Positions 13,587 through 50,139 of a DNA stretch of 64,000 nucleotides are shown here, piece after piece. Below the pieces are notes generated by a model that was not told the origin of the DNA, searched no databases, and saw only the letters and a program-made list of their open reading frames with translations. The number at the start of each line of letters is the position of its first letter. Positions within the stretch are counted from its first letter, which is position 1. The stretch lies in assembly GCA_004321885.1 (NCBI GenBank), contig SCQK01000004.1:1-64000 (forward strand), written 5' to 3'. Source of the DNA: Patescibacteria group bacterium (GTDB taxonomy: Bacteria; Patescibacteriota; Patescibacteriia; Magasanikbacterales; GWA2-37-8). A program made the translations under genes and the position numbers.

Positions 13587-16500
13587 ATGCCCATCAAACG
13601 AGTTCAAAAAGGACGACTAAAACCACCTGTCATTGCGAGACCTGAAAGAGGCCGCCTGCCCGCCTCTGGCGGGAAGCAATCCCCCGCGATTAAGAGAGGG
13701 ATCGCCGCGTCGCCCCGACGTAACGTCAGGGCTCCTCGCAATGACAAAGTGAAACCCGACACGAGCGGCGGTTACAGCGCCAAAAACATCACGGTGCTGG
13801 AAGGCTTGGAGGCCGTGCGCCGGCGGCCCGGCATGTATATCGGTTCCACGGGCACGACGGGCCTGCATCATCTGGTTTGGGAAGTGGTGGACAACTCCAT
13901 TGACGAAGCCATGGCCGGACATTGCGACCAAATTGACATCGCCTTGCTCCCCGGCCACCTGGTGGAAGTGCGCGACAACGGCCGCGGCATTCCGGTTGAC
14001 ATTCACCCCCAGCAAAAAGTCAGCGCCCTGGAAGTGGTACTCACCAAACTGCACGCCGGCGGTAAATTCGGCGACGGCGGCTATAAGGTCTCGGGCGGCC
14101 TCCACGGCGTGGGCGTGTCTGTGGTCAATGCTTTGTCGTCGTACGTAAAAGCCGAAGTGCATCGCGACGGAAAAATTTGGCTGCAAGAATACAAAAACGG
14201 CGGCCAGCCGGTAAAAAAAGTGCGGGCCATTGGCCCGGCCAAAGACACAGGCACGACCATTACTTTTTTACCCGACGCGAGCGTTTTTGAAACATTGGAT
14301 TTTGACTGGAAGACAATCGTGGACCATATCCGCCAACAGGCCTATCTAAACAAGGGCGTGCTTATTTCCGTTTCCGACCGGCGCCAGGGCGAGGAAAAAA
14401 CCAAAGACGGAACGGCTCTCCCTTATCCCAATCCCTCATATCAATTTTATTTTGAAGGCGGCATTGCTTCTTATGTGCGCCACCTGAATCAAAACAAAGA
14501 ACTGAAAAACGAAACTATTTTTTACGTTGATAAAGAGACCGATGGCGTGCGCGTGGAAACCGCTTTGCAATACACCGACGAATACACCGAATCGCTGTTC
14601 GCCTTTACCAACAACATCCACAATCCCGAAGGCGGCACGCATGTGGCTGGTTTTCGCGCGGCTCTCACACGCGGCCTGAACACCTACGCGCGCAACAAAA
14701 ATATCCTGAAAGAAAAAGACGCGAACCTGACCGGCGAGGACGCGCGCGAGGGCTTGAACTGCGTGATTTCGGTAAAGGTGCGCGAGCCCCAGTTTGAAGG
14801 TCAGACTAAAGCCAAACTGGGAAACACCGAGGTCAAGACCGCGGTGGAATCGGTGTTTGGCGACGCGTTTTTAATTTATTTGGAAGAGCACCCGCGGGAC
14901 GCCGAGGCCATCGTGGGCAAGTGTATCTTGGCGTCCAAAGCGCGCAACGCGGCCAAAATTGCGCGCGACGCCATCCTGCGCAAGGGCGCGCTGGAAGGCT
15001 TTACTTTGCCGGGCAAGCTGGCAGATTGCTCCAGCCGTCACGCCGAAGAGAGCGAATTGTTTTTGGTGGAAGGCGACAGTGCCGGTGGCTGTTTTTTTGG
15101 CTCAACTAAGCTAAAATTAGCCGACGGTCGCAGTTTATCTTTCAAAGAATTGGTGGAGGAAAACAAACAAGAAAAGAAAAACTATTGCTATACAATAAAA
15201 GAGGACGGCGATATTGGCATTGAACTGATAAAAAATCCACGAATGACGAAAACAGGCGCGGAAGTGATAAAAGTTATATTAGATAATGACGAGGAAATTA
15301 TTTGTACTCCGGACCACAAGTTTATGTTAAGGAACGGAGAATACAAGGTGGCACAAAATCTGACTCCCTGCGATTCATTAATGCCTCTATATAGGAAAAT
15401 ATCTGAAAAGAGTGGCAGAATCACAATTGAAGGATATGAAATGACCTTTAACCCGAAAGATGCAAGATGGATTTTCACTCATCTACTGGCAGATGATTAT
15501 AATTTACGAAACGGGGTGTACCCCGATGATAGAGGCACCAACAAGCATCATGTTGATTTTAATAAGTTAAATAATAACCCAGATAATATAGTAAGGATGA
15601 CTCACGAAGATCATATGGCTTATCATGCCATGATGCTTCAATTTGGTTTGCACAGAGCGGATGTAAAAGAAAAATCCAAAAAAGCTCACCAATCCGAGGG
15701 GTTTAAAGAAAAAATGAGCAGAATCATGAGTACTCCGGAAATGAAACAAATGTTAAGCCGCAGAGCGAAAAAGCAATGGGAGAACGAGGAATATAAAAAG
15801 TTCATGACGCAAAAATTCTTGGAATTTTACAATTCTAATGAGGAATACAAAAAAAAGAATAATGATTTTCTTAATAAGGCGCAGGAAGAATATTGGGCTG
15901 ACAAAGCCAACAGGAAAAAACAAGCCGAAAGAGTCACTGCGCATTTCAAGGAACATCCCGAAAGAAAAAAATGGCTTAGGGATTTCGCGAAACGGGAATG
16001 GACAGACAAAAATCTGCTTAAATGGCGAGCCGGGAAAACCAAGGAGCAATGGACTGACGAGTTTAGAAGGAAACGAAAAGAAGCATATGACAAGGTCTAC
16101 TTGACCAGCAGTCTGGCTTTCGCCAAAAAGCTTCTTGAATCCAAAGAAGATATGCTGAAAAAATATGACACTGCGCGAATTAATCTTCCGAAAAAAAATA
16201 CCAACCTGTTGAGCTTGAGGACTTTAATTGACAGATTTTTCAACGGCCAAAAACAAAACTTCCTTGAGGCGGTGGCGAATTATAACCATAAAATAATAAG
16301 AATTGAAAAAGTTGCCGAAAAAATGGACGTATATGATATTGAAGTGCCGCACACGCACAACTTTGCATTGGCCAGCGGCGTGTTCGTGCACAATAGCGCA
16401 AAATCCGGACGCGATCGCGAACACCAGGCCATACTCCCCTTGCGCGGCAAGGTGCTGAACGTGGAGCGCGCGCGCTTGGACAAAATCATCGGCAACAACG

Positions 16501-17117
16501 AATTAAAATCGCTGATTATCGCCCTGGGCACGAACATCGGCGAACAATTTGACATCTCCAAATTGCGCTACCACCGCATCGTTATTATGACCGACGCGGA
16601 CGTAGACGGCGCCCACATCCGCACTTTGCTTCTCACTTTTTTCTATCGCCACTTCCAGGACCTGATAACCGGCGGGCACATTTACATCGCCCAGCCGCCT
16701 TTATACAGCGTAAAATACGGCAAAGAAATGAAATACGCTTTTAACGACGAAGAAAAAGAAAAAATCTTGAAAGAATTACAGGGCAAGGGCAAGACGGCCA
16801 AGATTTCCTCCCCTGCCCGAGGGGAGGATGAAGGAGGGGCGGGAACGGAAGCTGAGAGCGGCGAAGAAGAAGCACAGTCATTGGTGGTGGGCGGGGTAAA
16901 GGTGAACATCCAGCGCTACAAAGGTTTAGGTGAAATGAACCCCGAACAGTTGTGGGAAACCACCATGAATCCTGAGAACCGAATAATGAAGCAAGTAACC
17001 GCGGAAAACGCGGAAGCGGCCAACCAAATGTTTGAGGTTTTGATGGGAGACGAGGTGGAGCCGCGCAAAAAATTCATCCAGACCCACGCCAAGCAGGTGC
17101 AGAATTTGGACGTGTAA
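13587..17117 (+). CDS. gyrB: DNA gyrase subunit B, interrupted by an intein
   Basis: Motifs LEGLEAVRRRPGMYIGS, HHLVWEVVDNSIDEA, EGDSAGG / SAKSGRDR flanking the intein, PLRGKVLNVE and QRYKGLGEMNPEQLWETTM. The first 54 codons run through a P-family palindrome, and GTG 13749 gives a normal-length N-terminus (MKPDTSGGYSAKNITVLEGL). The start is therefore uncertain. Confidence 0.95.
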   Translation: MPIKRVQKGRLKPPVIARPERGRLPASGGKQSPAIKRGIAASPRRNVRAPRNDKVKPDTSGGYSAKNITVLEGLEAVRRRPGMYIGSTGTTGLHHLVWEVVDNSIDEAMAGHCDQIDIALLPGHLVEVRDNGRGIPVDIHPQQKVSALEVVLTKLHAGGKFGDGGYKVSGGLHGVGVSVVNALSSYVKAEVHRDGKIWLQEYKNGGQPVKKVRAIGPAKDTGTTITFLPDASVFETLDFDWKTIVDHIRQQAYLNKGVLISVSDRRQGEEKTKDGTALPYPNPSYQFYFEGGIASYVRHLNQNKELKNETIFYVDKETDGVRVETALQYTDEYTESLFAFTNNIHNPEGGTHVAGFRAALTRGLNTYARNKNILKEKDANLTGEDAREGLNCVISVKVREPQFEGQTKAKLGNTEVKTAVESVFGDAFLIYLEEHPRDAEAIVGKCILASKARNAAKIARDAILRKGALEGFTLPGKLADCSSRHAEESELFLVEGDSAGGCFFGSTKLKLADGRSLSFKELVEENKQEKKNYCYTIKEDGDIGIELIKNPRMTKTGAEVIKVILDNDEEIICTPDHKFMLRNGEYKVAQNLTPCDSLMPLYRKISEKSGRITIEGYEMTFNPKDARWIFTHLLADDYNLRNGVYPDDRGTNKHHVDFNKLNNNPDNIVRMTHEDHMAYHAMMLQFGLHRADVKEKSKKAHQSEGFKEKMSRIMSTPEMKQMLSRRAKKQWENEEYKKFMTQKFLEFYNSNEEYKKKNNDFLNKAQEEYWADKANRKKQAERVTAHFKEHPERKKWLRDFAKREWTDKNLLKWRAGKTKEQWTDEFRRKRKEAYDKVYLTSSLAFAKKLLESKEDMLKKYDTARINLPKKNTNLLSLRTLIDRFFNGQKQNFLEAVANYNHKIIRIEKVAEKMDVYDIEVPHTHNFALASGVFVHNSAKSGRDREHQAILPLRGKVLNVERARLDKIIGNNELKSLIIALGTNIGEQFDISKLRYHRIVIMTDADVDGAHIRTLLLTFFYRHFQDLITGGHIYIAQPPLYSVKYGKEMKYAFNDEEKEKILKELQGKGKTAKISSPARGEDEGGAGTEAESGEEEAQSLVVGGVKVNIQRYKGLGEMNPEQLWETTMNPENRIMKQVTAENAEAANQMFEVLMGDEVEPRKKFIQTHAKQVQNLDV
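13629..13745. repeat. P-family palindrome, copy 2 (in gyrB leader or N-terminal extension)
   Basis: GTCATTGCGAG at 13629 and CTCGCAATGAC ending at 13745, with inner GAAGCAATC. Confidence 0.8.
15090..16394 (+). mobile_element. GyrB intein (435 codons) with HNH homing-endonuclease motif and Lys/Glu-rich repeats
   Basis: Inserted between GDSAGG and SAKSGRDR.
- Starts with Cys (CFFGSTKLKLADG).
- Block B TPDH (ICTPDHKFML).
- Ends VFVHN followed by Ser.
- HNH-like HHVDFNKLNNNPDNIVRMTHEDHMAYH.
- Then repeated K/E-rich units (KAHQSEGFKEKMS, RRAKKQWENEEYKKFM, EYKKKNNDFLNKAQEEYW) resembling NUMOD-type DNA-binding repeats.
- Visibly more AT-rich than the exteins. Confidence 0.85.
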
Positions 17118-17414: not shown

Positions 17415-17415
17415 T

Positions 17416-17453
17416 ACCCCTCTCTGTCTCTCCCCTTATAAAGGGGAGAGGAA
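17416..17453. repeat. S-family hairpin (CCTCCCC-TTATAA-GGGGAGG type), intergenic example
   Basis: ACCCCTCTCTGTCTCTCCCCTTATAAAGGGGAGAGGAATC between secE and nusG. Confidence 0.8.
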
Positions 17454-20825: not shown

Positions 20826-22025
20826 TCACTTTAGCAACATCGCGTCGCCGAAACTGTAAAATCTATACTTGGCTTCAATCGCTTTTTTATAACAATCCAA
20901 AGTGAATTTAATTGCTTGACGACTGGCGACCGGAGATCCTGAAACAAGTTCAGGATGACAATCGGCGATGAAAGCGGATACCAGCATCAGCAGGGTTGAC
21001 TGGGGCAGATGAAAATTGGTAATCAGCGCGTCTATTATTTGAAACTTGAAACCCGGGGTGATAAAAAGATTAACGTCGCCGGTGTATGGCCTGACCGCGC
21101 CGCTTGCGGCGATCCCTTCCAACGCGCGCACGGTGGTTGTGCCCACGGCCACCACTCGCCTGCCCTCGCGCTTGGCCGCGTTTATTAGGTCGGCATTTTT
21201 GGCCGAGAGCTCCACCCACTCGCCGTGCATTTTGTGTTCTTCCACTTTTTTTGTTTTCACCGGCACAAAAGTGCCCATCCCCACGTGCAATGTTACTTCG
21301 GCAAACTCCACGCCCTTGTTTTTTAATTGTTCAATCAACTCTGGCGTGAAATGAAATCCGGCCGTGGGCGCGGCCACCGAACCCTCGTGCTTGGCGTACA
21401 CGGTTTGGTATTGTTCGGGCGTGGCTGACGCTCCGATGTATGGCGGGGTCGGCACCTCGCCGTACTTGTTCGCCTTCTCGCGCACCACTAAATCATCATC
21501 GCCAAATTGCGCCAAAAAAGTCCCGTTATTTTCTTTAAGCAAAATTTCGCAGGCGAAGTCCTCGGCAAAAACCACTTTCATGCCCAGCCGCAATTTCCTG
21601 CCCGGCTTAGCCAGTACCCGCCAGACGCCTTTGTTTTCCATGGGACGGACCAAAAATATCTCCACCGGCGGGGCGTTCAAAATCACGCCAGTGCTGTCAT
21701 TGTGAGGAGTTCCGAGTACTCGGGACGACGAAGCAATCCCATTCGTAACTGCAAGGGATTGCTTCATTCCACTTCGTTCCATTCGCAATGACAATCGCGT
21801 GTCCAGCATCGCCCGTCCGCGCAAACGCGCCTTAAAAACTTTTGTGTTATTCCACACCACCAAATCGCCGGCGCCCAAATAGTGAACAATATCATAAAAA
21901 TGCCGGTGCGTAATGGTCCGGCTTTTTTTATCCACCACCATCAAACGCGACCAATCGCGCCGTTCTGCGGGGAATTGAGTTATCAATTCCTTTGGAAGCG
22001 CGTAATCAAAAAGAGAGGTTTCCAT
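20826..22025 (-). CDS. queA: S-adenosylmethionine:tRNA ribosyltransferase-isomerase
   Basis: METSLFDYALPKELITQFPAERRDWSRLMVV, GEVPTPPYI, VAAPTAGFHFT and GTTTVRALE. Two in-frame repeat-derived insertions: RLSLRMERSGMKQSLAVTNGIASSSRVLGTPHNDS and CHPELVSGSPVASRQ. Confidence 0.9.
   Translation of the reverse strand: METSLFDYALPKELITQFPAERRDWSRLMVVDKKSRTITHRHFYDIVHYLGAGDLVVWNNTKVFKARLRGRAMLDTRLSLRMERSGMKQSLAVTNGIASSSRVLGTPHNDSTGVILNAPPVEIFLVRPMENKGVWRVLAKPGRKLRLGMKVVFAEDFACEILLKENNGTFLAQFGDDDLVVREKANKYGEVPTPPYIGASATPEQYQTVYAKHEGSVAAPTAGFHFTPELIEQLKNKGVEFAEVTLHVGMGTFVPVKTKKVEEHKMHGEWVELSAKNADLINAAKREGRRVVAVGTTTVRALEGIAASGAVRPYTGDVNLFITPGFKFQIIDALITNFHLPQSTLLMLVSAFIADCHPELVSGSPVASRQAIKFTLDCYKKAIEAKYRFYSFGDAMLLK
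21696..21792. repeat. P-family palindrome, copy 3 (in frame inside queA)
   Basis: GTCATTGTGAGG...GAAGCAATCC...GGATTGCTTC...TTCGCAATGAC. Confidence 0.8.
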
Positions 22026-22040
22026 TTTTGAAAAAATACT

Positions 22041-22152
22041 AATTCCCAATTTCCAATGACCAATTTCCAATCAAGCACCAAACCACAATTACCAATTTGG
22101 ACATTGGGATTTAGGATTTGTTTGGTCATTGAAAATTGATAATTGGAAATTT
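22041..22152. repeat. Q-family AT-rich palindrome, copy 2
   Basis: AATTCCCAATTTCCAATGACCAATTTCCAAT ... ATTTGGACATTGGGATTTAGGATTTG ... GGTCATTGAAAATTGATAATTGGAAAT, between mltG and queA. Confidence 0.8.
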
Positions 22153-23910: not shown

Positions 23911-23923
23911 CGAATAATTGTAT

Positions 23924-24574
23924 ATGTTTTACAAAAACATCCCAAAACCCGGCGCTAATTTTAGAGCCAAGACCGGACTAAGCAGTTTTCAAAGAAGAAT
24001 AAAAAGCGCCGCCTTCTATAATTCCGCCAGTCCGCAGGCCGCGCTAAAACTTCATCCAAAAGCCGTTGACGCCCTCATCGGGCAGGTGGCCGCCAAAGAA
24101 AACGTCATCAGGCAAAACAAACTGACTTCCTATCACGTTACTAAAATGCGCGCGAACATTAAAAAAGCCGACCCTACCCTAACCAAAGTCAGCGAGGCGA
24201 TTATTCGTAAAACCCTCACCGGACTCACGGCCCAGGCCGCCAAAGAACAATCCCCGCAAGAAAAAAAGGCAATTATCGCGCGTAATCTGGCGCGGCGGCG
24301 CGAGGCTGATTCCGAACAGCAAAACCAAAACCAGCTTCGCCAGGGCACAATCAGCAGTATGAATAGGCGGTTTATAAAGGGTTCGGCCACTGCGCTCGGA
24401 AGACGTGGATACGAAACCACGCCGGACAAACTCGGTTCTCGCAACGCCACCTATGGCAGTATAGACGCCAAAGTAAAAGCCGCTCAATACGCCAAAAAAG
24501 AAGTCAAGGGTTCGGCGATTGGGCCGGTAAAGCCCTCGGCCAAACGACCGCCTCTCATGGATTTAGCGATTTAG
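23924..24574 (+). CDS. hypothetical basic protein
   Basis: ORF of about 216 aa, rich in K/R/Q, with no motif recognised. First ATG at 23924. Confidence 0.55.
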   Translation: MFYKNIPKPGANFRAKTGLSSFQRRIKSAAFYNSASPQAALKLHPKAVDALIGQVAAKENVIRQNKLTSYHVTKMRANIKKADPTLTKVSEAIIRKTLTGLTAQAAKEQSPQEKKAIIARNLARRREADSEQQNQNQLRQGTISSMNRRFIKGSATALGRRGYETTPDKLGSRNATYGSIDAKVKAAQYAKKEVKGSAIGPVKPSAKRPPLMDLAI

Positions 24575-24577
24575 CGC

Positions 24578-25339
24578 ATGCCCAAGCAACCTTATAAAAT
24601 CATTGCTGAAACTGCGGATTATCTGGTGGTGGAAAAACCGGCCGGCCTGTTGACGCATTCCACCGCCAAACGCGAGCCAGACTCACTGGCTGAGTTGTTG
24701 GCAAAAAAATACCCGGAAATGCGCGAGGTGGGCGACTCCCCGGCCGAACGCCCGGGCATTGCGCACCGGCTGGACAAAGAAGCCTCGGGCTTGCTGGCGG
24801 CGGCGCGCACCCAAAAGATGTTTGAACATTTGAAAAAACAGTTCCAGGAACGAACCGTGGAAAAAGAATACATCGCCCTGGTACACGGCAAGGTGGCAAA
24901 AGATGTCGGCGAAATAAACTTCCCCATCGGCCGAGCGACGAACAAGGAGAGGATGGCGGCCAGGCCGTTTACCCCTCCCTCGCCACCACACCAAAAATTT
25001 TGGTGTGGTGGCGAGCCCTCCCCTTCTAAGGGGGAGGGGAAAATGGCCAGCACTGAATTTGAGGTGGAAAAGCGATTCATCAATTTCACCCTATTGCGCG
25101 TCAAAATCCACACCGGCCGCATGCACCAGATTCGCGTTCATTTGCTCGCCTACGGCAACCCGCTCGTCGGCGACCCGCTCTACATCAAAAGAAAACAAAA
25201 GCGCAAATGGGACCAGGCGCTGGGACGACTTTTCTTGCACTGCGTAAAATTAGTGTTCAAAGATTTGAATGGGGCGCCGCGAACATTTACTTCCCCGTTG
25301 CCGCTTGAATTGGAAAATTTTCTTAAAAAAATAAAGTAG
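24578..25339 (+). CDS. RluA-family pseudouridine synthase
   Basis: GIAHRLDKEASGLL catalytic motif and HTGRMHQIRVHL. Carries an in-frame palindromic insertion (PPSPPHQKFWCGGEPSPSKGEGK). Confidence 0.85.
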   Translation: MPKQPYKIIAETADYLVVEKPAGLLTHSTAKREPDSLAELLAKKYPEMREVGDSPAERPGIAHRLDKEASGLLAAARTQKMFEHLKKQFQERTVEKEYIALVHGKVAKDVGEINFPIGRATNKERMAARPFTPPSPPHQKFWCGGEPSPSKGEGKMASTEFEVEKRFINFTLLRVKIHTGRMHQIRVHLLAYGNPLVGDPLYIKRKQKRKWDQALGRLFLHCVKLVFKDLNGAPRTFTSPLPLELENFLKKIK

Positions 25340-26416: not shown

Positions 26417-29341
26417 TTATCCTTTTAAGTACTTCCCGGTCCAGCTTTTTTTGCTCTTCATAATATCACGCGGAGCGCCCGCGGCCACAATCTCTCCGCC
26501 CTTGTCCCCGCCCTCTGGCCCCATGTCTATCACCCAATCGGCTGAACGTATCACGTCCAGATTGTGCTCTATCACCAGCACGGTGTTGCCTTTGGCCACC
26601 AATCTGTTCAACACTTCCAACAAATGTTTTATATCTTCAAAATGCAAGCCAGTGGTGGGTTCGTCCAAAATATATAATGAATGTCCGGACGCGCTGCGCG
26701 ACAGCTCGGCGGACAGCTTTATTCTCTGGGCTTCGCCGCCCGAAACCGTGGTGGCCGGCTGGCCCAGCTGAACATAGCCCAAACCGATTTCGCGCAACAC
26801 GCCCAACTTGCCGGCGATGGGCGGAACGTCGTTAAAAAAAGCAAAGGCCTCGTCTACGGTCATACGCAAGACATCGGCGATATTCTTGTTGCGGTAATGT
26901 ATCTCCAGGGCCTCGCGATTATAGCGGTCTCCGCCGCACTCATTGCACTGCATGTACACGTCGGCCAAAAATTGCATGGGGATGCGCACATAGCCCTCAC
27001 CGGCGCAGGCCTCGCAACGGCCCCCGCCCTTCACGTTAAAACTGAACTTGCCGGCGTCGTAGCCGTTCATTTTGGCTTCGGGCAAACCGGCGAACAAATC
27101 GCGAATCAAAGTAAACAGCCCCGTGTACGTAGCCGGATTACTGCGCGGGGTGCGGCCGATGGGCGACTGGTCCACGGTAATTACTTTGTCAATATTTTCA
27201 ATGCCTTTAATTTTTTTGTGCTCGCCCGGCAAATCTTTGGCCCGATAAAAATGGCGGGCCAGCTGTCTGCCCAAAATATCCACGATGAGCGAAGACTTGC
27301 CCGAACCAGACACGCCGGTCACGCACACGAATTTGCCCAAGGGGATGTCGGCGTCCACATTTTTCAAATTAAAGGCCCTGGCGCCGAGGATAGAAATTTT
27401 TTTGTTGGATTTTTGCAGACGCGCCCCCATTTTTATGGGCAGGACGCCCCGGCCGACTAGATACTTTCCCGTAACCGATTTTTTATTTTTTTTTATCTGT
27501 TGTAAACTGCCGGCCGCCACGATTTCGCCGCCGGAGAGGCCGGCGCCCGGCCCCATATCAATTAAATAATCCGCGCCGGCCATCATAGCGCTGTCGTGCT
27601 CCACCACTATTACAGTGTTGCCCAAATCGCGCAAAAATTTCAGGGCGCCGATGAGTTTGGCGTTGTCTTTGGGATGCAGGCCCACCGAAGGCTCGTCTAA
27701 AATATATATAATGCCGGTAAGGCCCGACGACAGCTGGCCGGCCAAACGCACGCGCGTCACCTCTCCACCCGAGAGCGTGTTCATGGCGCGCCCCAGCGAC
27801 AAGTATCCCAAGCCCACCTCCTGTAAATTTTGCAAGCGCTTGATTGTTTCTTTGATGATGGTTTCACCGTGCTGGGCAAAAACTTTGCCTCCCATCCCCC
27901 ATTTGTCCCCCCCTCTGGCAGAGGAAGAAAGCTTTTCCAAAACCGACACGGCTTGCCCGGCCGACAGCTCGGAAATATCCGCGATGCTGTACTGGCCCAG
28001 CTTCACGGCCAATGACTCCACGCGCAAACGTTTGCCATGGCACAGGGAACACACCTGCTCGCGCATGTACTGTTCTATTTCACCGCGCACATAATCAGAA
28101 TCGGTCTCCAAATGCCGCTGGGTCAGATTGGTAATCACCCCGGAAAAAACGGTTTTCTTTCCGTCTATTTCGTATGTCTCGTTGTCGCCGTACAAAATCA
28201 GCTTCATCTGCGCATCGGAAAGTTCTGCTACTGGCGCATTCAGAGAAAAATCATGTTTCTGCGCGACCGCGGCCAGAATTTTTTGGTACCACGTTTGATT
28301 GCCGGTAATGCGGGTCCAGGGCTGGATAGCGCCCTCGGCCAAAGTAAGCCGCTTGTTAGGCGCCACCAGCTCCGGGTCAACTTCCATGGTCACGCCCAAA
28401 CCAGTACAACGCGGGCAGGCGCCATAAGGGCTGTTAAAACTAAAACTGCGCATGTCAATCGCCGGCATTACTTTGCCGCATTTAGCGCACAGCCCTTCGG
28501 TGGAAAACAACACTTCCCTCCCCCTTTTTAAGGGGAAGGCGGGGTGGGGGTAAGACGCCGCAATCACACTGCCGTTGCTCAAATCCAAGGCCGTCTCCAC
28601 CATTTTGGCGATGTTGGGCTGTTTCTTGGCATTCTGGGTGGAAATATTTCCCACCACCAGTTCCACGTTGTATTTTTTATTGGGCAAAAAACCAAAACGC
28701 GCGAATTCGTTTAGTTTCATCAGCTCGCCGTTTACCCGCACCGTGTCAAAACCCGACTTTTCCACTTTGTCCAGCAATGCGGCATGACTGGGTTCCCCTC
28801 CCCCTTTTAGAGCTTGTCCCGAACTTGTTTCGGGAGGGAGGACAGAGGAGGGGGTATTTGGCGAGGATGGGGTCAATGGAGACAACACCCACACCTCGGA
28901 ACTATTCCGCGTCATCTTTCTCACTTCCTCGGTAATCTGGCCGGGCGTAAACGACATCACTGGCACGCCGCAACCGGGGCAGTATTGCGCGCCCACGCGC
29001 GCGAAGAGCAAACGCAAATAATCGTAAATCTCGGTGATAGTGCCCACGGTGGAACGCGGATTCTGCGAAGAACTTTTCTGGCCGATGGCGATGGTGGGAG
29101 AAAGCCCCTCCACGCTGTCCACGTCCGGCTTGTCGCGCACGTCCATAAACTGGCGCGCGAAAGAAGACAGCGACTCGGCGTAGCGGCGCTGGCCCTCGGC
29201 GTAAATTGTGTCAAAGGCGAGCGAGGATTTTCCCGAACCGGACAAGCCGGTAATCACTACCAGCTTGTTCTTGGGAATTTCCACGTTTATATTCTTCAAG
29301 TTGTGTACTCTCGCCCCTTTGATGATTATTTTATCAGCCAT
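26417..29341 (-). CDS. uvrA: excinuclease ABC subunit A
   Basis: [54 protein letters not shown], two ABC modules and zinc-finger cysteines. 974 aa including in-frame repeat-derived segments ([15 protein letters not shown]). Confidence 0.95.
28796..28856. repeat. S-family hairpin inside the uvrA coding sequence
   Basis: CCCCTCCCCCTTTTAGAGCTTGTCCCGAACTTGTTTCGGGAGGGAGGACAGAGGAGGGGG. The ORF stays open across it. A second copy lies at about 28516-28552. Confidence 0.75.
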
Positions 29342-31150: not shown

Positions 31151-31250
31151 AAATTTCCAATTTCCAATCAATGTCCAATGACCAATTACCAATATCCAAT
31201 TTGGACATTTGGATTTTGGCATTGATTTGACATTGGAAATTTGTCATTTG
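31151..31250. repeat. Q-family AT-rich palindrome, copy 3
   Basis: AAATTTCCAATTTCCAATCAATGTCCAATGACCAATTACCAATATCCAATTTGGACATTTGGATTTTGGCATTGATTTGACATTGGAAATTTG. Confidence 0.8.
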
Positions 31251-31971: not shown

Positions 31972-32092
31972 TGAAATGACCAATTACCAATAACCAATTT
32001 CCAATCAAATCCAAATGCCAAATAACAAACTTGGACATTTTAACTTTGACATTAGGAATTGATTTGATATTAGAAATTTGGATTTTGGCATT
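31972..32092. repeat. Q-family AT-rich palindrome, copy 4
   Basis: Same unit composition as copy 3. Copies 3 and 4 bracket the DsbA-like gene. Confidence 0.8.
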
Positions 32093-34320: not shown

Positions 34321-34404
34321 GCCGGGGTGGTGAAATTGGTAGACACGCTAGCTTCAGGAGCTAGTTCTCGCAAGGGAATGGAGGTTCGAGTCCTCTCCCC
34401 GGCA
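34321..34404 (+). tRNA. tRNA-Leu, anticodon CAG
   Basis: GCCGGGG TG GTGAAATTGGTAGACAC, anticodon arm CTAGC-TTCAGGA-GCTAG, long variable arm, T arm GGAGG-TTCGAGT-CCTCT, CCCCGGC A. No encoded CCA. Confidence 0.9.
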
Positions 34405-34543
34405 CAACTTGGAGGTTCGTCCGGTCATACGACCGGACGCCCAGTCAAATGACTGGGCGAGTCCCTCCTTGCCCACGTCTTTTTCCTCCCCTTGTTAAGG
34501 GGAGGATTAAGGAGGGGTATTCTTAATTATTAAAGAGAAATAT

Positions 34544-36358: not shown

Positions 36359-36365
36359 ATAATCG

Positions 36366-36535
36366 CTGGCTCCATAGTCCCCGACTAAGTCGGGGCTGTG
36401 GAGCCGTATTGCAAACTGGCTCCACACAGAGTATGGAGCCAGCGGGTGTAGAAAATCGCTGGCTCCATAGTCCCCGACTAAGTCGGGGCTGTGGAGCCGT
36501 ATTGCAAACTGGCTCCACACAGAGTATGGGGTCAG
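36366..36535. repeat. R-family repeats, copies 5 and 6 in tandem (inverted relative to copies 1-4)
   Basis: Two units (36366-36442 and 36459-36535) of CTGGCTCCATAGTCCCCGACTAAGTCGGGGCTGTGGAGCCGTATTGCAAACTGGCTCCACACAGAGTATGGAGCCAG, between the convergent rnj and ldh. Confidence 0.85.
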
Positions 36536-36553
36536 CGAGCAAAGGGAGGGGTT

Positions 36554-37949: not shown

Positions 37950-38410
37950 TTGTGGTTCATGGTTATAAGCCGAATTTTGTACCCCGACGTTACGTCGGGG
38001 CGATGTTCATTTCTCTGGTCTTGACATTGCTGTCAAAATCTTAGCGAGCGAACTTTTTATCCCGACTAAGTCGGGACTCTGCTCTTGCGCCAGACAGGGC
38101 TTGGCACTCTTCGACGTTGCCGCCGAAGGGAGTATGGTAGCTTTGGTCTCGAGAACCACAACTCCCATACACTTTTCACCTTTGACGAACCCCGACTAAG
38201 TCGGGGTGAACGTCCGCCTGTGGCGGACTCTCATGAATCGCTAGTATTGTCTCTGTGCCGCTTTCCCTACGCCGACGTTGCCGCCGACGTGGCGGGTGTT
38301 ACCCGTTGCCTTTTTCTTTACCGGCTAGTTCCGCTAAGGGCGGACAGACGGAAAGGGCGTTCGGACTTTCCTTCCCGACTAAGTCGGGACGAACATCTGC
38401 CACGAACTGA
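37950..38410 (-). ncRNA. rnpB: RNase P RNA (bacterial type A-like)
   Basis: Minus strand contains GGAAGGAAAGTCCGAACGCC (P4 5' strand), ACAGAGACAA, GGTGAAAAGT and ACAAAATTCGGCTTATAACC (P4 3' strand). P1 pairs GTTCGTGG (plus 38400-38407) with CCATGAAC (plus 37955-37962). Terminator ACAAACGCCCCCTTAACAGGGGCGTTTTTG follows. Ends are approximate. Confidence 0.8.
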
Positions 38411-48731: not shown

Positions 48732-48804
48732 AGGTCGTTCCCCTCCCCTTGATATCTGCGGATATTTACTCATTCGTTCGGAAGTAAAAGTATAAACTTT
48801 TACT

Positions 48805-50139
48805 TCACTCACTCATTTCGTAAATAAGGGGAGGGTTAGGGAGGGGTAAAATAATTTCACCCTTTAAGACCCAAACATCAGCGGAAGTAATCTTAACATC
48901 CAAAATTTTTCCAATCAAATTTTTTGCGCCGGCAAACTGCGCGAGCTTCATTTCCGAAGAGTTGCCCGAGCAAATCCCTGCCTCGCATTTGTCCGCCAAT
49001 ACCGAAACTGTTTTGCCGATGTATTTTTGATTTTTGCGATAAGTTGTTTCTTCCATCAATTCTTGTAAAATCTGCCAGCGGCGCTTTTTTTCTAGGCGCG
49101 GCACATCATCTTTGAAGGCCCTGGCCGCGGCCGTCCCACTGCGCTGACTATACATGGCCGTGTAGGAAATGTCAAAATCACACTCTTTGTACAGAGCCAC
49201 CGTGTTTTGAAACTGTTTCTCGGTCTCGCCGCAAAAACCCGCGATAATATCCGTGCCAATGGCGATACTTGGTTTGGCCTGGCGGATTTTTTTTATCAAA
49301 TCAATATATTGCTCCCGCGTGTACTGGCGATTCATCTTGCGCAAAATTTCATTATCCCCGCTTTGAACCGGCAGGTGCAGATAATTCACCTGCTTGGGCA
49401 GTTTCAGCGCCTCTATTTGCGCGTCGGAAAAATAACGCGGGTCCGCGGCGGTAAAATGCAAGCGCTCCAACCCAGCCAACTTATTCAGCTCTTTCAGTAA
49501 ATCGACGAAACTGTCCCCCTCCCCCTTTTTAAGGGGGAGGTTGGGTAGGGGTAAATCCGGATCGCGGTAATTATTCACCACCTGCCCGAGCAGAATAATT
49601 TCTTTCGCGCCATTTTCAATCGCTATTTTTACCTCGTTAATAATTTCTTTGGCCGGCCGGTTTTTCTCGCGGCCGCGCGCCTGCGGCACCACGCAATAGG
49701 TGCAATAATTATCACAGCCGGTCTGAATAGTGATAAACGTTTGAAATCTACTCGTTCGCGCCGGCGCCAACTCTAAATAATCTCCAAGGTCAGCGCCTCC
49801 CAGCCATCTTGACAGCACCCCCATTTCGTGTATCGGAAAATACAAGTCAACCCCTTTTAGCCTGCTTTTTAACTTCCCGTCTTTGTCGCGGCCCGGCATA
49901 CAGCCGGTAACAGCGATTGTCAAATCCGGCTTTTTTGCCTTAAGTTGGCTCCAATTTCGCACTAGCCCGTGAACGCGGTCTTCGGCGCTTTGGCGCACCG
50001 AGCAGGTATTGACAATTAGTAAATCCGAGTTTTCGGCTTTGGCGCTTCTGGTCATCCCCAAGAAATTCAAAAAACCGGCGATTCTCTCTGAATCGTTTTT
50101 GTTCATCTGACAGCCGAAGGTAACGAGAAAATACTTCAT
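48805..50139 (-). CDS. miaB: tRNA-2-methylthio-N6-dimethylallyladenosine synthase (radical SAM)
   Basis: MKYFLVTFGCQMNKNDSERIAG, the CDNYCTYCVVP radical-SAM cluster and a TRAM-like C-terminus. In-frame S-family insertion [15 protein letters not shown], and a repeat-derived C-terminal tail. Confidence 0.9.
   Translation of the reverse strand: MKYFLVTFGCQMNKNDSERIAGFLNFLGMTRSAKAENSDLLIVNTCSVRQSAEDRVHGLVRNWSQLKAKKPDLTIAVTGCMPGRDKDGKLKSRLKGVDLYFPIHEMGVLSRWLGGADLGDYLELAPARTSRFQTFITIQTGCDNYCTYCVVPQARGREKNRPAKEIINEVKIAIENGAKEIILLGQVVNNYRDPDLPLPNLPLKKGEGDSFVDLLKELNKLAGLERLHFTAADPRYFSDAQIEALKLPKQVNYLHLPVQSGDNEILRKMNRQYTREQYIDLIKKIRQAKPSIAIGTDIIAGFCGETEKQFQNTVALYKECDFDISYTAMYSQRSGTAAARAFKDDVPRLEKKRRWQILQELMEETTYRKNQKYIGKTVSVLADKCEAGICSGNSSEMKLAQFAGAKNLIGKILDVKITSADVWVLKGEIILPLPNPPLIYEMSE
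49515..49553. repeat. S-family hairpin inside the miaB coding sequence
   Basis: CCCCCTCCCCCTTTTTAAGGGGGAGGTTGGGTAGGGG. Confidence 0.75.

Follow-up and report, generated by a model that had tools for sequence, protein, structure and literature searches.

Copies of a three-arm triplex-motif repeat between and inside core genes of a Magasanikbacterales bacterium

The first 64,000 nucleotides of contig SCQK01000004.1 (assembly GCA_004321885.1; forward strand), referred to here as the window, come from a Patescibacteria group bacterium (Magasanikbacterales, GWA2-37-8) that belongs to the candidate phyla radiation (CPR). Its proteins place the window close to Magasanikbacteria. It carries 13 copies of a short G/C-rich repeat, the S-family, at a density of about one copy per 5 kb, and nine of the 13 lie inside open reading frames (ORFs). 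Each unit is built of three arms, in the order CCTCCCC, an A/T loop, the complement GGGGAGG, a short spacer and the mirror copy GGAGGGG. Judged by its sequence rules, the S-family is a new family within the class II (C-G-G) intrastrand triplex motifs, the class to which BoxC, PIT and TMECO elements belong. The class itself is already known. What is new for it, to judge by the literature searched, is the density of the S-family, a CPR bacterium as the host and a location within essential genes. A first-pass annotation of the window had listed 13 palindromes of this type, and all of them are present where it placed them. Its gene identities (uvrA, gyrB, miaB, an RluA-type synthase, a LamG3 protein and a surface protein) were confirmed with Pfam, the peptides that it quoted, including SPSKGEGK, are correct, and its central proposal, that the copies constitute a real dispersed family residing in frame in core genes, stands.

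The heptamer GGGGAGG/CCTCCCC occurs 21 times in the window, compared with 7.1 ± 2.5 times in dinucleotide shuffles, none of which (0 of 100) reached 21. A strict search for three 7-nt arms, in which the hairpin and the mirror-repeat third arm were each allowed at most one mismatch, returned 10 matches at nine loci, against a mean of 0.015 and a maximum of 1 in 200 dinucleotide shuffles. The window has 18 perfect hairpins whose stems reach at least 9 bp, and eight of them are S-family units. No Rfam family covers the S-family copies. They had been described as hairpins that are often doubled with a GGAGGGG tail. The palindrome is real, but the anatomy is that of a hairpin plus a mirror repeat in which three arms are regular, and the third arm is a mirror repeat of arm 2 rather than an incidental tail. 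Indeed, arms 2 and 3 co-vary, reading GGGGAGG/GGAGGGG at 16806, 34484 and 11306, G7/G7 at 9855, GGGGGAGG/GGAGGGGG at 63888 and GGGGAGAG/GAGAGGGG at 17415. Only the copy at 63888–63940 has four arms, and thereby forms a full palindrome.

Within this framework, arm 1 reads (T/C)CCTCCCC and is followed by a TTATAA-like first loop of 5–9 nt by the arm definition, or 3–5 nt when the TT/AA extension of the stem is counted. The second loop spans 3–7 nt (3 nt at 9855, 11306 and 48828), with ATTAA, ATGAA, ACAGA or TTA/TTGG as the spacer between arms 2 and 3, and arm 3 mostly ends in T(A), so that about 10 of the 13 copies share a GGGGTA terminus. The apparent unit lengths are 36, 36, 36, 34, 35, 37, 72, 37, 61, 36, 40 and 51 nt; 36 nt is the commonest value in this small sample, whose boundaries are good only to ±1–2 nt. 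When 11 copies were folded as single-stranded DNA, the hairpin between arms 1 and 2, with a stem of 9–10 bp, was the minimum-energy fold in seven, and in most intact copies arm 3 stayed unpaired. The two copies with nested hairpins (24970 and 28796) fold differently, and for those at 28516 and 11306 the fold is not better than that of shuffled sequence, so that both are regarded as decayed.

Elements of this class were first described as BoxC in Escherichia coli, then as PIT elements and subsequently as TMECO, for which the pattern is CCCTCNCCC-N3-6-GGGNGAGGG-N3-GGGNGAGGG (Holder et al., Nucleic Acids Research 2015, PMC4666352). TMECO has 3610 copies in 262 proteobacterial genomes, many G/C-rich motifs are found in cyanobacteria, palindromic pairs occur, and no tie to transposons, phages or plasmids was seen; single-stranded TMECO oligonucleotides form a stable purine-motif triplex in vitro, as followed by circular dichroism and nuclear magnetic resonance (PMC4666352). 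The S-family keeps the class II block order of C-rich pyrimidine, G-rich purine and G-rich purine even in its interrupted and decayed copies. Its arms 1 and 2 are reverse complements, as the hairpin rule has it, and its arms 2 and 3 follow the mirror-repeat rule (G·G:C and A·A:T triads); the rules for the loops are 1–6 nt in the ITxF database, and 3–6 and 3 nt for TMECO. Further likenesses to BoxC, PIT and TMECO are the C-G-G arms, units of about 36–37 nt, many dispersed copies, a palindromic double form and the lack of any known associated transposase, and the TTA variant of the second loop (48828) recalls TMECO in particular. The literature on BoxC and PIT reportedly also includes work by Bachellier and co-workers in the 1990s and by Hoyne and Maher in 2000.

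The S-family is not TMECO in the strict sense, since its arms CCTCCCC/GGGGAGG/GGAGGGG differ from the CCCTCNCCC/GGGNGAGGG consensus: the first arm is 7 nt rather than 9 nt long, and the loops are longer and A/T-rich. The two also differ in density and location. E. coli K-12 has 23 TMECO copies in 4.6 Mb, all of them intergenic (PMC4666352), in contrast to a CPR bacterium in which most copies lie inside ORFs. By analogy with its relatives, the S-family variant, with 7-nt arms and longer A/T loops, may form a triplex. A G-quadruplex as the sole rationale of the unit was rejected, several copies being devoid of four G3 tracts; the mirror rule holds throughout, and the triplex motif is thus kept as the structural description.

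The intragenic copies were compared with orthologues and structures. The closest homologues of UvrA, MiaB and the RluD-like protein among 5.8 billion proteins searched have 66–68% protein identity; the closest GyrB homologue is 70% identical. From these alignments UvrA sites 1 and 2 and the RluD-like site are demonstrated to be lineage-specific insertions in variable loops, as the first-pass annotation had proposed for the intragenic copies in general; the segments in MiaB and GyrB are instead variable segments of equal length, and insertion at intragenic sites other than these three is only plausible. All of the copies examined in UvrA, the RluD-like protein, MiaB and GyrB lie in variable loops or linkers. 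The minus-strand uvrA gene (26417–29341) has two of them. The unit at site 1 (28796–28856, plus strand; amino acids (aa) ~159–183, the unit itself ~162–182), whose first loop holds a nested hairpin TCCCGAA-CTTGT-TTCGGGA, adds 22 aa that none of the 21 aligned homologues has. Across 120 homologues any insert at this position is confined to the window protein and one other, which has an unrelated 10-aa insert. The site lies in the UvrB-binding domain, where a strand gives way to a helix, and is coil, with a predicted local distance difference test (pLDDT) score below 50, in the AlphaFold model. Site 2 (28516–28552, plus strand; aa ~264–276) holds a decayed unit in an inter-strand loop at the end of the UvrB-binding domain, modelled by AlphaFold as a loop between two strands; it adds about 8 aa relative to the solved structure of Geobacillus UvrA, and most of the 21 aligned CPR homologues lack the segment. 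A possible third, strongly decayed uvrA copy (27888–27928, minus strand; aa ~471–481) was not counted; CPR homologues have a segment of equal length here, so it is no insertion relative to them.

The RluA/RluD-type pseudouridine synthase gene (24578–25339, plus strand) contains a unit at 24970–25041 (minus strand) whose second loop carries a nested hairpin with a 17-bp stem (24979–25015). It encodes TPPSPPHQKFWCGGEPSPSKGEGK and lengthens the protein by about 21 aa relative to solved structures and by 13 aa relative to the modal CPR homologue. As a separate observation, this 253-aa ORF lacks the N-terminal S4 domain present in nearly all of its ~320-aa homologues, and upstream of it (region 23918–25339) a 218-aa ORF without a Pfam match shares its frame, with one TAG codon between the two. 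In miaB (48805–50139, minus strand) the unit at 49514–49553 (plus strand; aa ~196–208) occupies the most insertion-prone loop of CPR MiaB. This loop is 8 aa longer than in the Bacteroides structure but equal in length to that of the nearest CPR homologues, so that the unit replaces the usual APDPESFSxxNPFKxKD rather than lengthening the loop. The perfect unit in gyrB (CCTCCCC-TGCCCGA-GGGGAGG-ATGAA-GGAGGGG, 16806–16840, plus strand), which encodes SSPARGEDEGGA, sits in a variable charged linker from the Toprim domain to the C-terminal tail, and the closest homologue has a linker of the same length. The gyrB gene (13587–17117, plus strand; 1176 aa) additionally bears an intein at 15117–16394 (aa 511–936), between the GyrB and Toprim domains.

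Two further genes carry copies. The LamG3 protein gene (7791–9989, minus strand) has a unit CCCCCCC-TTAATAA-GGGGGGG-CTA-GGGGGGG-TA at 9855–9890 (minus strand), directly after the hydrophobic core of the signal peptide, where it encodes FPPLNKGGLGGV. The surface protein gene (11346–13325, minus strand) has one copy at 12710–12745 (plus strand), encoding PPSVPPLIGEG, and a second, slightly decayed one at 12767–12800 (plus strand). The former lies in the first copy, and the latter is the product, of a single 57-nt tandem duplication (12678–12801), so the pair represents one insertion plus one duplication.

Five intergenic copies had been listed, and those at 11306, 17415, 34484 and 63888 are indeed intergenic, but the stretch 48822–48850 supplies the final 15 codons of miaB. 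It belongs to an interrupted unit at the miaB/miaA junction (48738–48850, plus strand), with arm 1 at 48742–48748, a 79-nt insertion in the loop that has its own 11-bp hairpin (48781–48806), and arms 2 and 3 at 48828–48850 (GGGGAGGG-TTA-GGGAGGGG-TA). On the minus strand it places GGGGAGGGG 8 nt upstream of the miaA ATG (48731). The partly decayed unit at 11306–11341 (minus strand) lies 5 nt past the stop codon of the surface protein gene and has one mismatch in arm 1 and a weak fold. In the unit between secE and nusG (17415–17451, minus strand) all three arms co-vary (CTCTCCCC/GGGGAGAG/GAGAGGGG), and on the plus strand the nusG ATG (17459) follows the complement of arm 1 (GGGGAGAGG) at a distance of 7 nt. 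A perfect unit at 34484–34519 (plus strand) separates a tRNA gene (34321–34404) from the RNase J gene (34544). The four-arm palindrome at 63888–63940, TACCCCT-ACCTAA-CCTCCCCC-TTAATAA-GGGGGAGG-AAACA-GGAGGGGG-TA, ends 5 nt upstream of the start of an Nramp gene (63883, minus strand).

Small structured repeats in permissive loops are common across this CPR clade. Rare inserts of at least 6 aa were found in 36 of 120 UvrA and 59 of 120 MiaB homologues, about 30 of 120 RluD homologues have a lengthened loop at the site of the element, and the rare inserts in all three proteins are concentrated in a few hot-spot loops. The in-frame load of the window had been called unusual, which is true relative to E. 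coli but not within the CPR clade, where such inserts are frequent. Many of the insert peptides (PPLGKG..., VIPAKAGIQ, VILSEAKDL, LPAGRQ, HPELVSGS and WIPVFTGMT) resemble translations of small palindromic DNA of several families, as judged by eye and with the DNA itself checked in one contig, L121. This CPR contig comes from an independent assembly and is syntenic with the window. Two uvrA sites of L121 hold in-frame elements of the three-arm and related G/C types, and a third uvrA site holds another palindrome. Its RluD gene contains a pair of three-arm elements, in the same loop as that of the RluD-like gene in the window.

The three-arm architecture extends well beyond the CPR. A scan of one genome per species with the pattern CCTCCCC-N5-9-GGGGAGG-N4-7-GGAGGGG found at least 120 loci, and the matches listed fall in Alpha-, Beta-, Gamma- and Deltaproteobacteria, Planctomycetota, Nitrospirota, Chloroflexota, Acidobacteriota, Omnitrophota, Saccharibacteria and other Patescibacteria. 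By chance alone, tens to hundreds of matches to the raw pattern could arise in GC-rich genomes. Chance was nevertheless rejected as the source of these loci, since positions that the pattern leaves free are 85–87% conserved and many loci carry several copies (2–9). Specifically, among the matches listed a C precedes arm 1 in 85%, and G stands at both ends of the spacer in 86%, against about 10% expected; the core of the spacer reads TT, TTA or CC, like that of types A and B in E. coli. The pattern also occurs in at least 120 viral or proviral contigs of IMG/VR, one of which (IMGVR_UViG_2936130024_000001, L183) has nine copies in 13.9 kb.

The explanation that we consider probable, though far from secure, is that the S-family is a non-autonomous dispersed triplex-motif repeat, whose intragenic copies have been filtered by selection to those that preserve the frame, are free of stop codons and lie in loops. 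Mobility of the repeat and selection as the filter are both what we infer from its distribution. As single-stranded DNA, arms 1 and 2 of a unit would pair as a hairpin of 9–10 bp, and the free third arm would fold back onto it, giving a triplex as in the E. coli relatives. Copies would be gained, duplicated and invaded by other small hairpins, and would then decay. With the window about 91% coding by simple longest-ORF tiling, most new copies would land in genes, and since broken genes would be lost, the frame would be kept in the intragenic copies that survive, which would be free of stop codons in their reading frame and would lie in surface loops or linkers. On translation, runs of C give Pro, Ser and Leu and runs of G give Gly, Glu, Arg and Lys, and the resulting peptides (PPL-x-KGEG and similar) are flexible and suited to loops.

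Several features of the window fit this account. The four copies that lie in the 9% of non-coding DNA represent an approximately threefold enrichment, as would follow from the loss of most insertions into genes. Nested foreign hairpins in two copies, the 79-nt insertion in a third, one tandem duplication and two decayed copies fit a dynamic of birth and decay. The first-pass annotation had offered two explanations for the in-frame copies, a strong filter for insertions tolerated in loops or an insertion mechanism with a constraint on length. The filter is supported by the position of the sites in variable loops or linkers, including the coil and loop assigned to the UvrA sites in the AlphaFold model. 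The length constraint is not indicated by the units themselves: lengths that are multiples of three occur in three of four intergenic and three of eight intragenic copies, and no frame bias is seen in this small sample.

Other observations weigh against dispersal. A Pfam scan of about 50 ORFs in the window found no transposase, integrase, RAYT-type or Y1/HUH gene, and no consistent target-site duplication is seen at the copies. The copies are not near-identical, and hence give no sign of a recent burst. At MiaB and GyrB insertion is not demonstrated, because there is no net gain in length relative to the nearest homologues. The nearest relatives are only about 66–70% identical in protein sequence.

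Four other explanations were weighed. The units might be functional DNA structures, triplexes or G-quadruplexes kept to pause replication or transcription, to stimulate recombination or local variation, or to bind a conserved protein, with selection favouring their presence in genes. We think this unlikely, although it draws on the conservation of the architecture, including positions that the pattern leaves free, from Proteobacteria to CPR, and on the link between TMECO sites and local genome instability (Holder et al., PMC4666352). It would also suit the fit of several G-rich halves to the G-quadruplex pattern (e.g., GGGGAGGGTTAGGGAGGGG at 48828) and the presence of three-arm elements in the RluD loop of two genomes whose proteins are just 60% identical. 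However, the E. coli elements had no promoter, terminator or regulatory role in published tests (PMC4666352), some window copies are decayed, interrupted or duplicated, and the intragenic sites are loops that elsewhere accept unrelated families of palindromes, which fits permissiveness better than a site-specific function. A local origin, through template switching or fold-back synthesis that perfects quasi-palindromes at existing G-rich codons for Gly and Glu in variable loops, appears more doubtful still. It would account for the exchange of loop sequence at constant length in MiaB and GyrB, for the overlap of the right arm in RluD with the conserved residues E-G-K, and for loops and spacers that vary among copies devoid of a target duplication. 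It leaves unexplained, however, the shared GGGGTA termini, the constant order of the arms, the recurrent spacers (ACAGA, ATTAA and TTA) and the modal length of 36 nt, and UvrA site 1 is a clean addition of 22 aa.

The position of GGAGG-type arms 7–8 nt upstream of nusG and miaA, and near the Nramp start, would be in keeping with intergenic copies that act as expression signals, either as a Shine–Dalgarno (SD) sequence GGAGG masked by the anti-SD-like CCTCC or as terminators, the intragenic copies then being by-products. Such a role is very improbable as a general explanation, because SD-like motifs are found upstream (within the 22 nt before the start) of just three of the 47 ORFs of at least 100 aa, the leaders being A/T-rich and the genome barely using SD. 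Moreover, the intergenic copies at 11306 and 34484 lie 24–35 nt from the next start codon, the hairpins have no trailing run of T, and most copies are intragenic. Hardly credible, finally, is an origin of the intragenic segments as ancestral protein sequence or as artefacts of assembly. The MiaB and GyrB segments do have the same length as in homologues, and the window derives from a metagenome-assembled genome. Yet UvrA site 1 is missing in essentially all 120 homologues and the RluD insert in most, the peptides are not conserved, every ORF is open across its copies, and in-frame elements of the same type occur in L121, a CPR contig from an independent assembly. A separate Logan assembly contains exact matches to parts of the window, although these parts hold no copy; none of the short Logan contigs from SRR8426592 that match the window contains one.

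Dispersal of a triplex-motif repeat, the reading that we favour, invites comparison with other short palindromic repeats. REP and REPIN sequences are short (20–40 nt) imperfect palindromes, highly repeated and extragenic by definition, with a conserved 5′ GTAG head and a flanking RAYT (Y1/HUH) gene. The S-family resembles them as a short, repeated palindrome, and REP/REPIN copies are sometimes paired in inverted orientation, but it has no GTAG head, is mostly intragenic and has a third mirror arm, and there is no RAYT/Y1 gene in the 64-kb window. The SDR of heterocystous cyanobacteria, attributed to Elhai and colleagues in 2008, are said to be very short mobile repeats, mutually nested and present in genes for structured RNA as well as in coding regions. 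They represent other sequence families in another host phylum and are not defined by a mirror-repeat third arm. Classification as a miniature inverted-repeat transposable element was rejected, there being no consistent flanking direct repeat and no transposase in the window. The closest parallel in behaviour is with the Rickettsia palindromic elements (RPE), which are in-frame palindromic inserts in unrelated housekeeping genes of a small genome (Ogata et al., 2000, per PMC10969869). Like RPE, S-family units are in-frame palindromic repeats that add peptide segments compatible with the fold of the protein. According to the same account, RPE are about 100–150 bp long with a conserved peptide and their families are specific to Rickettsia, whereas the S-family units are about 36 nt long, rich in G/C homopolymers and give peptides that depend on frame and orientation, and the two have no sequence similarity. 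The S-family thus works like RPE without belonging to the RPE family.

BoxC, PIT and TMECO elements have been known for about 30 years, without a function or a copying mechanism being found, and have been treated as intergenic. A lineage in which copies are some 40 times denser than in E. coli K-12, and lie inside uvrA, gyrB, miaB and an rRNA pseudouridine synthase gene, is new material for this problem. Orthologues that lack the intragenic copies would make boundaries, target preferences and decay readable once closer relatives are sampled. For annotators and structural modellers there is a note of caution, in that extra Pro/Gly-rich loops of CPR proteins may be no functional motifs but the translation of repeat DNA. 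The copies also raise the question of whether triplex- or G-quadruplex-prone DNA in essential genes affects replication or transcription where repair capacity is minimal.

Other small repeats share the window. The palindrome CCCGACTAAGTCGGG is present at 10 loci (1775, 7757, 20777, 25940, 26360, 36380, 36473, 38061, 38191 and 38374) against 0.01 expected by chance, mostly between genes apart from three copies in the RNase P RNA gene. This RNA (37950–38408, minus strand) is 459 nt long, compared with 367 nt for the Rfam model, and contains the 15-nt palindrome CCCGACUUAGUCGGG three times (38061–38075, 38191–38205 and 38374–38388). Two of these copies replace peripheral stem-loops, one of them the first stem-loop of the model, and one lies in a large insertion between paired regions, and CCCGACUUAGUCGGG is a second repeat family, one that colonises an essential structured RNA. 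A third family of hairpins, CTGGCTCCA-N9-TGGAGCCAG, is found at six loci (4231, 9937, 10796, 26312, 36416 and 36509) against none expected, and two of its copies together with the CCCGACTAAGTCGGG palindrome make up a 93-nt unit repeated 1.9 times in tandem (36361–36537) downstream of the RNase J gene. It is tempting, if tentative, to suppose that the reduced, Magasanikbacteria-like CPR genomes may host several families of tiny structured repeats, including triplex-motif units and palindromes of 15–40 nt, that settle again and again in the same permissive loops of essential proteins and in the peripheral helices of RNase P RNA as a general mode of loop evolution. If this holds, the many filled and empty orthologous sites could reveal how repeats of the BoxC/PIT type are copied, a question that dates from the 1990s. 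The literature searched holds no report of such repeat-driven loop evolution as a general mode in CPR genomes.

The remaining observations concern other genes of the window, in which the GC content ranges from 44 to 55%. The QueA protein (20826–22070, minus strand; 414 aa) matches its 322-position Pfam profile over residues 19–413, which leaves about 70 extra residues, and the queA block is unusually GC-rich (55%). A tRNA gene (7514–7584, plus strand) extends into the 5′ end of the longest ORF that codes for a LamG3 protein (5309–7651, minus strand); the true start of that gene is probably further downstream. A DUF3800-II RNA motif (61251–61314, plus strand) adjoins one of the three DUF3800 genes of the window (749–1324, 10158–10814 and 61336–61878). 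Finally, arrays of the heptamer AATTTCC (with variants AATTACC and AATGACC), of four to eight copies each, are found at 22041–22071, 31152–31202 and 31975–32005, at the 5′ ends of three minus-strand genes or a little upstream of them, namely queA and the genes for proteins resembling a type IV secretion system (T4SS) pilin and DsbA.

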